Both the position numbers and the translations under genes were made by a program. Shown one piece after another: positions 9,974 through 16,020 of a DNA stretch of 32,000 bases. Numbering within the stretch: the stretch's first letter is position 1; every line of letters starts with the position of its first letter. The stretch is from NCBI GenBank assembly GCA_964426185.1, contig CAYRPF010000024.1:1-32000 (forward strand), in the 5' to 3' direction. The DNA is from an uncultured archaeon. GTDB lineage: Archaea > Asgardarchaeota > Lokiarchaeia > Sigyniarchaeales > Promethearchaeaceae. The notes beneath the pieces are model-generated. The model was not told the DNA's origin. It did no database searches and worked only from the letters and a program-made list of their open reading frames with translations.

Positions 9974-10002
9974 TTTGATAACTTTGGTAACTTTGATAAC
10001 TT
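9974..10002. repeat. 9-bp tandem repeat (TTTGATAAC, TTTGGTAAC, TTTGATAAC)
   Basis: Three units read directly, ~75 bp upstream of the 4Fe-4S gene. Confidence 0.7.
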
Positions 10003-12156: not shown

Positions 12157-13083
12157 ATGCACCGAATTTTAATTCTGAAAGGTGGCGGATTACGTGGATT
12201 ACTGCAATTGCCAGCGTTGGAATCGATTGAGTCTTACTTTGATAAAAAAATTGCAGAAATTTACGATCTGATTGTTGGTTCTTCAGTAGGAAGTATCACT
12301 GGCGGCATTCTTGCAACAGGTAAATTCCCGGTTTCAAAATATTATGATTACTTTATGCGCTATATTCCGAAAATTTTCAAACGACGCAAGGGTTTGGGGC
12401 TTTTCCGACCGATTTATGAACAGAAAAATTTCTCCCGCATGTGGCAAAAGCTTTTTCCCGATTCTAATATCTTGATGAAAGATTGTCAAACCCGCTTTTT
12501 AAGCACTTCTATCAATTTATGCGATTTTCGCACTCACTTTTTCAAATCATGGGAAGAAAATGACGGGCAATTATCCTTGGAAGAATGTATTCTACGCTCT
12601 TTTGCCGCGCCCTATTATTTTGGACCGGTAATTGACCATGATCGAAAAGCAGTCTGGGTAGACGGCGGATTGGGAACCACAAACACACCGTTGATGATTG
12701 CTTACGCCGAAAGTATCAATTTAGGATGGCTTCGTGAAAAAGTGGAATTTACCGTAATTGGGACCGGTAATGTCAATTATTCCATGGATTTTGAAAAAGC
12801 TAAGCATTTGAATTTGCTCGAACAAATCAAGATGTTTCTGTATCCGAGAGAAGGTGGTTTAGCTCGGGTGCAATCTACTATGAATCAAGTTGATTTAATG
12901 CACATTATTGCCAAATCCAATCCATTAGTCGATTTTCACTATTACGATGTCGAGATTGGTTCGGAGTATTCAGGTTTAGACAAAAGAAAACATATTCATG
13001 CATATCAAGGCTTTGGAAGGATTATTGCGGATCAAGTGGATAAAGATCTTCAAGCGGTAGATAATTTAAGTATGCCGCTTTGA
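12157..13083 (+). CDS. Patatin-like phospholipase
   Basis: GGGLRG, GSSVG (catalytic Ser), SFAAPYYF and DGG (catalytic Asp) motifs. Confidence 0.92.
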   Translation: MHRILILKGGGLRGLLQLPALESIESYFDKKIAEIYDLIVGSSVGSITGGILATGKFPVSKYYDYFMRYIPKIFKRRKGLGLFRPIYEQKNFSRMWQKLFPDSNILMKDCQTRFLSTSINLCDFRTHFFKSWEENDGQLSLEECILRSFAAPYYFGPVIDHDRKAVWVDGGLGTTNTPLMIAYAESINLGWLREKVEFTVIGTGNVNYSMDFEKAKHLNLLEQIKMFLYPREGGLARVQSTMNQVDLMHIIAKSNPLVDFHYYDVEIGSEYSGLDKRKHIHAYQGFGRIIADQVDKDLQAVDNLSMPL

Positions 13084-13100
13084 ATTATGCGATATACATG

Positions 13101-13160
13101 CACTTAAACTCACTTAAACTCTCCTAAACTCACCCAAATTCACTTAGAATCGCTTTAAAC
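13101..13160. repeat. Degenerate 10-bp tandem repeat, about 6 units, consensus CACTTAAACT
   Basis: cacttaaact cacttaaact ctcctaaact cacccaaatt cacttagaat cgctttaaac. Confidence 0.75.
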
Positions 13161-13209
13161 CACATATATTTGATTTTTATATTAAAATGCATACATTTTT
13201 ATCATTTAA

Positions 13210-13326
13210 CTCGACAAATTTGTTAACAACTTTGGATAGACAATTTGGTCCGAATTTTACTGTAAATGTCGAGGGTTTGAATTCAACGCTTTCTTTTTCA
13301 GGTATTGTCAACCAAAGTTGTGGAGG
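13210..13326 (+). promoter_or_regulatory. Putative structured 5' leader of the dodecin gene
   Basis: ACAACTTTGG(13226-13235)/CCAAAGTTGT(13312-13321) with GACAAT(13239-13244)/ATTGTC(13304-13309); second pairing CTCGACA(13210-13216)/TGTCGAG(13267-13273); GGAGG SD begins at 13322. Confidence 0.5.
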
Positions 13327-13336
13327 GATTGAAAAA

Positions 13337-13549
13337 ATGACTGATTCTGTTTATAAGGTGGTGGAACTTGTCGGAACATCCACTACGTGTTGGGAAGATG
13401 CCGTTAAAGCCATAGTAGAAAAAGCAGCCAAATCACTACAAGATATTCGGGTTGCAGAAGTAAAAAAACTCGATGTACGCATCGATGAAAATAAAGTGGT
13501 GCTATATAGGGCTAAAGTTGAACTTTCATTCAAATACAAGGATGAGTAA
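13337..13549 (+). CDS. Dodecin-family protein (calcium-dodecin/Rv0379-like subtype)
   Basis: MTDSVYKVVELVGTSTTCWEDAV...IRVAEV...YRAKVELSFKY; GGAGG SD upstream of ATG 13337. Confidence 0.9.
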   Translation: MTDSVYKVVELVGTSTTCWEDAVKAIVEKAAKSLQDIRVAEVKKLDVRIDENKVVLYRAKVELSFKYKDE

Positions 13550-13574: not shown

Positions 13575-13630
13575 TTTTTTTTTTGTTTTTTACACCTTCA
13601 GTTTTGTTTTTTCGGTAATTTCCTTTTTTC
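13575..13630 (+). terminator. Archaeal-type oligo-T terminator region downstream of dodecin
   Basis: Multiple long T runs shortly after the stop codon. Confidence 0.5.
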
Positions 13631-15458: not shown

Positions 15459-15543
15459 TACTCAAAATTAATCATAAAATTAATCAAAAAAATAATCGAA
15501 AAAAATCACAAAAAAAATAATGTGAAATAATTGAGGGAAAAAA

Positions 15544-16020
15544 ATGAATCGAATATTATTGGAAGAAATGTTGCAGAAAATGAAAAAAGATTTAATTCAA
15601 GGCAAAGAGATAGGAAATTTAAAAATCGGGGCTTTATACGCTTTGGGTAATCAGCTTGATGCAATTTACTATTTCATGGGGCATGAATTAAGCGGAGTAT
15701 TAGAAGTGGAAGAAACCATTAGCAGCCCTATCGTGCCTGCATTAGAACAAATTTCTAATCAGTATAATTTAGGCAAATTCATCTTGGTGGAAGAAGATAG
15801 AGAGCACATTACTTTTGATTTGGATCGATGTAATTCGTGTAAAGATCTTACTATTTCTAAGGTGAAAATGCCACAAGGTTTTTGTTCTTTTGAAGCGGGG
15901 TTGTATGCAGGTCTGGTAGAAAAAATGACAGGAAAACATTGTTTCGCACAAGAATTGGAATGCCGGTTGCAAGGAACGGTGGATTACTGTAGATTTATGA
16001 TAGTCATTCCACAAGAATAA
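15544..16020 (+). CDS. V4R (4-vinyl reductase) domain protein
   Basis: CNSC...FCSFEAGLYAGLVEKMTG...ELECRLQG..YCRF V4R pattern; GAGG SD. Confidence 0.88.
   Translation: MNRILLEEMLQKMKKDLIQGKEIGNLKIGALYALGNQLDAIYYFMGHELSGVLEVEETISSPIVPALEQISNQYNLGKFILVEEDREHITFDLDRCNSCKDLTISKVKMPQGFCSFEAGLYAGLVEKMTGKHCFAQELECRLQGTVDYCRFMIVIPQE

Follow-up and report, generated by a model that had tools for sequence, protein, structure and literature searches.

What is the long inverted repeat in front of the dodecin gene of a lokiarchaeal genome: a regulatory RNA, a DNA site, the trace of a mobile element or a coincidence? The repeat lies in a stretch of DNA of 32,000 nucleotides, which is called the window in the following. 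The genome (G000) has a size of 3.26 Mb and 34% G+C. A first-pass annotation of the letters alone had proposed a cis-regulatory RNA leader here, with a riboswitch among its readings. We compared four sequences from three lineages: the window, the locus of H. repetitus (G001, locus L019), a relative from the same genus, that of a second Harpocratesius assembly (L125/L126) and the Logan contig L124. The loci L124, L125 and L126 were reached through close homologues of the dodecin. A further contig, L133 (P0133), was identical to the window and added no information. The elements of the leader and the gene are the following.

13101–13146, + strand: tandem repeat with a 10-nt period (CACTTAAACT, 4.6 copies, found by TRF), upstream of the promoter
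13174–13183, + strand: TATA-like box TTTTTATATT, which may be an alternative promoter and is not within the block shared with L124
13193–13203, + strand: BRE/TATA-like box ACATTTTTATC, the putative dodecin promoter; the homology to L124 begins here
13210–13216, + strand: 5' arm of stem A, CTCGACA, read from the sequence
13226–13235, + strand: 5' arm of stem B, ACAACTTTGG, with the core CAACTTT kept in L124, G001 and L125/L126
13239–13244, + strand: 5' arm of the inner helix, GACAAT, from folding
13245–13303, + strand: fast-evolving interior, which holds the 3' arm of stem A, the palindrome TTGAATTCAA and a T5 run (13294–13298)
13267–13273, + strand: 3' arm of stem A, TGTCGAG, within the interior
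13304–13309, + strand: 3' arm of the inner helix, ATTGTC, from folding and sequence
13312–13321, + strand: 3' arm of stem B, CCAAAGTTGT, forming 10 perfect pairs with the 5' arm
13322–13326, + strand: Shine-Dalgarno sequence (SD) GGAGG, directly after the 3' arm of stem B and 10 nt before the ATG
13337–13549, + strand: dodecin CDS, 70 aa (Pfam PF07311, E 1.4e-22); homologues begin at the same Met
13575–13584, + strand: T10 run after the dodecin stop codon, a candidate archaeal terminator read from the sequence

Stem B, the inner helix, stem A, GGAGG, the palindrome and the TTTTTAT boxes (13174 and 13196) were all found where the first-pass annotation had placed them. Stem B is separated from the inner helix by an internal loop of 3x2 nt (ATA/AA). 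The SD lies outside stem B and begins after its last pair; for the SD to be paired, transcription would have to start upstream of 13217. The internal loop was also compared by eye with K-turn, bulge-helix-bulge, C/D-box and H/ACA elements, and it fits none of them.

In PMC6298564, dodecins are treated solely as flavin buffers. The gene in the window starts with the ATG at 13337; a patatin-like gene (12157–13083) lies upstream and a YgbA_NO-family gene downstream. Public gene calls give dodecin products of 105 aa (P0001) and 120 aa (P0132). These are probably over-extended annotations, as the homologues and the SD point to a protein of 70 aa. The leader frame is open together with dodecin over 50 codons (13187–13336). 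This upstream ORF was rejected as an N-terminal extension, because it is unconserved and the homologues comprise 69–70 aa. Oligo-T serves as a terminator in archaea, and the T10 run is likely to be one. The dodecin unit would then be monocistronic.

The tandem repeat at 13101–13146 is probably not part of the leader, and it is missing from the orthologous H. repetitus spacer. More tandem repeats with periods of 9–12 nt were found in the window by TRF (1232–1256, 9974–10002 and 15464–15553). In the sister-lineage genome G002, ATCACTCC occurs four times upstream of dodecin, and the stem interior of L124 contains CAC(C/T)T(C/A)AAC-like units akin to the CACTTAAACT repeat in reversed orientation. 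Short-period tandem repeats may be a habit of the genus.

Within this genome alone, stem B is an ordinary coincidence and no better than chance. Perfect inverted repeats with arms of 10 bp or more and a gap of 3–100 nt occurred 890 times in the 3.26 Mb (0.27 per kb), which equals the first-order Markov expectation. Among 1027 SD-bearing genes, taken from crude gene calls, there were three in which the segment preceding the SD had a complement of 10 nt or longer located 30–140 nt upstream, compared with zero to two in controls; no genome-wide habit of long-range helices before the SD was seen in this set. The folding energy was unremarkable as well. RNAfold yielded -27.2 kcal/mol for 13205–13345 (z -0.28 on the + strand with respect to dinucleotide shuffles), and for 13225–13336 the z value was -0.56 on the + strand and -2.5 on the - strand. 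The latter is a composition effect: random shuffles that are A/C-rich and poor in G.U pairs fold poorly. Antisense transcription of 13225–13336 could be another reading of the - strand value. Both stem B and the inner helix were present in the minimum-energy and centroid structures of the window. The predicted probability of stem B was 0.93–1.0 in the window, 0.54 in L124, 0.2–0.22 in L125 and 0.02 in G001, and the value for L124 dropped to 0.03 when the transcript carried 22 extra upstream nucleotides. Stem B becomes non-random only because it is conserved in relatives.

In all compared lineages, a core of CAACTTT and AAAGTTG brackets an interior of 76–101 nt before dodecin. The nucleotide identity of the dodecin CDS was 79–84%. 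The spacer between patatin and dodecin comprises 253 nt in G001, like the orthologous spacer of the window. Its arms are GCAACTTTC (-184 to -176 from the ATG) and GAAAGTTGC (-90 to -82), with a gap of 85 nt, and the gap in the window is 76 nt. L125 and L126 carry GCAACTTTT and GAAAGTTGC. The arms of L124 are ACAACTTTGATCG and CGATTAAAGTTGT; the 3' arm is found at -23 to -16, the same position as in the window, and the SD of the window has a homologous counterpart there (GGGAGG). The dodecin of L124 is 90% identical to that of the window in protein and 84% in nucleotides.

The loci were compared by a script anchored on the core, as a global MAFFT alignment of the spacers misaligned the arms. 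A covariance model from four sequences and a helix of 9 bp would not yield usable statistics. Every offset from -1 to +7 was paired in four of four sequences, and none was disrupted. In the order of the core-anchored table, the pairs at offset -1 were A-T, A-T, G-C and G-C, and those at offset +7 were G-C, G.T, C-G and T.G. Offset +8 was G-C in the window and A-T in L124. The helix of L124 is longer by four lineage-specific pairs, which arise from sequence unrelated to that of the window. The covariation amounts to about three independent double changes. The two wobble pairs (offset +7) form only on the + (mRNA-sense) strand; G.U pairs thus favour the RNA sense as the probable acting strand. 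A covariation check upstream of orthologous dodecins had been suggested by the first-pass annotation; in the core-anchored comparison, compensatory changes of stem B pairs were seen in the three lineages available.

We estimated how often such a shared repeat arises by chance. In random 253-nt sequences of G001 composition, a repeat that had any 7-nt core in common with the window's arm was found in 87–124 of 100,000 trials, i.e. about once in 1000. The pattern CAACTTT N60-100 AAAGTTG occurred once in G000 and five times in G001 (4.4 Mb), which is the control level. Outside the arms, the spacers of G001 and the window were at random similarity. The leader interiors of the window, L124, G001 and L125 were unalignable. 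That of L124 contains tandem GAGGTGCGTT-like repeats, and 13245–13303 has no similar copy elsewhere in the genome. We conclude from the comparison that the pairing of the arms is likely to be under selection in three lineages. The leader of the dodecin mRNA probably contains stem B as a structural helix. The element is single copy and confined to the dodecin locus. The closing helix was retained while the 76–101 nt that it encloses were replaced or randomised.

The first-pass annotation had treated the closing of the stem at the SD as a property of the element. This does not hold in the H. repetitus lineage: the helix of G001 ends at -82 from the ATG and closes 66 nt further from the SD than in the window. 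Between the big helix and the SD of L125, TAACTAAAAT may pair with the upstream ATTTTAGTTA (10 bp) or the downstream ATTTTAGTT (9 bp), the three sites being 1391–1400, 1432–1441 and 1461–1469. These alternative hairpins consist of AT pairs only, and chance pairing is plausible.

The tRNA genes of this genome have a recurrent upstream box, an A-run followed by TTTTTA, TTTTAA or TTTAAT, and ACATTTTTATC (13193–13203) fits this promoter box. L124 is homologous to the window with high significance (z 14.8) from ACATTTTTATC onwards, despite a different upstream gene in L124, which is divergently oriented. This onset would mark where the dodecin expression unit begins on its 5' side. The distance from the box to the 5' arm of stem B was 22 nt in the window, 23 nt in L124 and 24 nt in G001 (counted from the TATTTATT box there). 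Transcription in archaea starts at a usual distance from the TATA box. With this spacing, we infer a transcription start site (TSS) at about 13225, 22 nt after ACATTTTTATC. The upstream box TTTTTATATT would possibly give a TSS near 13206–13209, just before the 5' arm of stem A, and an interior TATA-like box (GAATTTTAC, 13252–13260) could place a TSS downstream of the 5' arm of stem B. Genome-wide, TATA-like hexamers showed no positional peak before start codons of crude gene calls. Our literature searches yielded neither maps of transcription starts nor studies of mRNA leaders from Asgard archaea.

Based on these data, the reading that we prefer is a constitutive clamp helix at the 5' terminus of the dodecin mRNA in this lokiarchaeon of the Ca. 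Harpocratesius clade. We hold it tentatively, at slightly under an even chance. Through stem B, about ten nucleotides at the start of the mRNA would pair with the 10 nt that immediately precede the SD. Such a clamp would hide the 5' end from decay that depends on it and loop out an unconstrained insert that evolves fast, and the SD would be offered in single-stranded form where the helix closes. The helix would act as a constitutive structural or stability element and not as a ligand sensor. A stabilising effect is suggested purely by analogy.

Sister lineages (G002/L018, L128–L132 and L134) have dodecins of 80–87% identity, and their leaders contain a different hairpin. It consists of an invariant stem (GACAG.AAAAA / UUUUU.CUGUC) and a variable loop of 24–37 nt, and it is located about 23–25 nt before the ATG (L018:435–484 on the - strand in G002). 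No covariation was found in this stem across the sister loci. In G002, the motif occurs at the dodecin locus only. Positions 13217–13242 of the window align locally with the segment leading into the sister hairpin (z 2.3). The inner GACAAU/AUUGUC helix of the window is therefore probably homologous to the sister GACAG hairpin, and stem B is probably a lineage-specific outer extension of it. When metagenomes were scanned with the dodecin protein, all homologues obtained had at most 70% identity, and none of them had this leader or the sister hairpin, and neither element was found at more distant dodecin loci. Other dodecin leaders have features of their own. G008 (L024) has a dodecin of 43% identity, and its upstream region from -75 to -19 contains a perfect 13-bp hairpin (GTGTTCCATGTAA / TTACATGGAACAC), with another hairpin inside it and its closing end 19 nt from the start. 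In addition, the motif GTTCCA recurs upstream of the dodecins of G011 and G013 and in the sister-lineage leaders.

The preferred clamp reading has to be weighed against explanations without a functional RNA helix. The repeat may have arisen by chance in the common ancestor, its arms being kept separately as initiator and pre-SD sequence while their pairing has no function. The Markov-level frequency of such repeats, the similar pre-SD complements in 3 of 1027 genes, the + strand z values of -0.3 to -0.6 and the poor prediction of the helix in G001 and L125 all agree with this. Against it, a shared-core repeat in the orthologous spacer is expected about once in 1000 random trials, and the flanking pairs differ by lineage yet remain complementary, with four further pairs in L124 taken from non-homologous sequence. 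We regard inherited chance as rather unlikely. The arms could also be a pair of DNA operators or a roadblock, i.e. inverted protein sites over the TSS and before the SD that are bound by a dedicated regulator. The 5' arm and the predicted TSS overlap, and this is where archaeal repressors classically bind; moreover, the 7-bp core is invariant, as are the arms of the sister-lineage hairpin. The spacing of the cores (80, 101, 87 and 86 bp) has no constant helical phase, however, dodecin has no conserved regulator gene as a neighbour in its different contexts, and a DNA site does not need arms that co-vary. The arm motif occurred in 31 copies, mostly inside ORFs, and was not enriched in other intergenic regions, so a regulon of this motif was discarded. 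An operator pair is unlikely. A mobile or invertible remnant (a MITE, a foldback insertion or an inverton flanked by the repeat) would explain why terminal inverted repeats bracket about 96 bp, why the interiors are wholly different between lineages, as if swapped, and why L124 has tandem repeats in its interior. The first-pass annotation had named a MITE as its alternative while seeing no target duplication. The latter was correct: the flanks (...TTGTTA and GGAGGG...) contain no direct repeat, so there is no target-site duplication. The MITE itself is contradicted by BLAST of the 133-nt leader, which found only itself in its own genome (next matches with E of at least 0.7 over 14–22 nt) and only CDS matches in 40 relatives. 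In addition, the pattern of the arm pair was at the control level in 14 family genomes, three lineages share the position of the repeat with respect to the promoter box, and no interior was found in both orientations. We consider a mobile remnant very unlikely.

Other explanations accept the RNA but make it a sensor or a switch. FMN riboswitches regulate flavin genes in bacteria, and a long leader before the gene of a flavin-binding protein would suit a riboswitch that binds a metabolite (flavin, CoA or a metal) and controls dodecin. The scan of Rfam that the first-pass annotation had proposed matched no family: at gathering thresholds, nothing was found at the four loci, and with E values up to 10, the sole match of Rfam 15 (4227 models) was an H/ACA snoRNA model on the - strand (17.2 bits). 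An H/ACA sRNA was rejected, as the gathering score is 80 and the ACA that follows the - strand stem in the window is missing in G001. The would-be aptamer interior is conserved neither in sequence nor in length between close relatives and is unalignable even between loci whose dodecins are 84% identical in nucleotides. Together with the lack of an Rfam match, this excludes an aptamer of the riboswitch type, and the riboswitch is the most improbable of the readings. The earlier proposal of a cis-regulatory RNA leader stands as far as stem B is a conserved cis element, probably acting as RNA, with compensatory and wobble changes in three lineages, and its riboswitch part is dropped. A switch could also work by the interleaved stems A and B, by pairing of the U-rich 13217–13224 with the SD or by both, leading to translational control or to attenuation at the T5 run. 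If the TSS lies upstream of 13210, G.U pairs prolong stem B across GGAGG in the minimum-energy structure, and pairing of the U-rich tract with the SD is possible in L124 too. L124 also has a positional analogue of stem A (TTCAACCG / CGGTTGAA) that overlaps the position of stem A in the window. The statistics of the stem A duplex with the interior were weak, with p values of 0.028 in the window and 0.078 in L124, but above 0.9 in G001 and L125, i.e. in the H. repetitus lineage, where stem A is missing; the conserved pseudoknot or alternative fold that had been suggested is accordingly not upheld. T5 runs occur in the interiors of the window and L124 but not in that of G001, and such runs are frequent at 33% T. 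Furthermore, the switch requires a TSS from the non-conserved upstream box, the SD of G001 is 66 nt further from the helix and no effector or conserved sensing element is evident. Such a switch does not appear likely. In a more specific form, two promoters would produce 5' ends that engage stem A or stem B, and together with the U-rich anti-SD tract, these would switch SD access or termination on a protein or metabolite signal. This is likewise unlikely; if true, it would be the first cis-regulatory mRNA switch described in Asgard archaea.

The dodecin leader helix is thus real but modest and clade-restricted, and it is neither a riboswitch nor a MITE. Mechanistically, it is nothing of a new kind, and only a few relatives at the level of the genus have it. 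For Asgard archaea, it provides a small, concrete candidate: a leader helix specific to one gene, supported by comparison, for which a promoter box and a 5' end are predicted. It also indicates that leader interiors turn over fast in these genomes while the closing helix is retained.

Compared with known systems, the leader resembles the FMN riboswitch (Rfam RF00050) and other cis-regulatory families of Rfam in its position and in the flavin-related gene, but 0 of 4227 models match and there is no conserved core. It shares with SD-sequestering elements (ROSE and fourU thermometers, expression platforms of riboswitches) that the 3' arm in the window ends immediately before GGAGG, and that the U-rich tract could pair with the SD if transcription of the window starts further upstream. 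It differs from them in that the SD lies outside the conserved helix (66 nt further away in H. repetitus) and no sensor is conserved. The size of about 96 bp and the terminal inverted repeats, with 16 pairs in 18–19 nt, are MITE-like, whereas the single copy, the missing target-site duplication, the conserved orthologous position and the unconserved interior are not. The hairpin of the sister lineages belongs to the same gene, has the same distance to the ATG, a GACA...UGUC helix and a variable loop, and a TATA-like box lies about 22 nt upstream of its 5' arm; it lacks the outer CAACUUU/AAAGUUG helix, and its loop has only 24–37 nt. Bacterial 5'-terminal mRNA stabilisers are represented by the hairpin of the ompA 5' UTR and the aprE and ermC leaders. 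They are compact hairpins, while the helix in the window is long-range, encloses 76–101 nt and has a predicted 5' end, and its host is an Asgard archaeon with a different decay machinery (aRNase J / aCPSF type). In both cases, a helix would involve the very 5' terminus of an mRNA that has a leader and depends on an SD, the stem is constrained while the loop varies freely, and the element is gene-specific.
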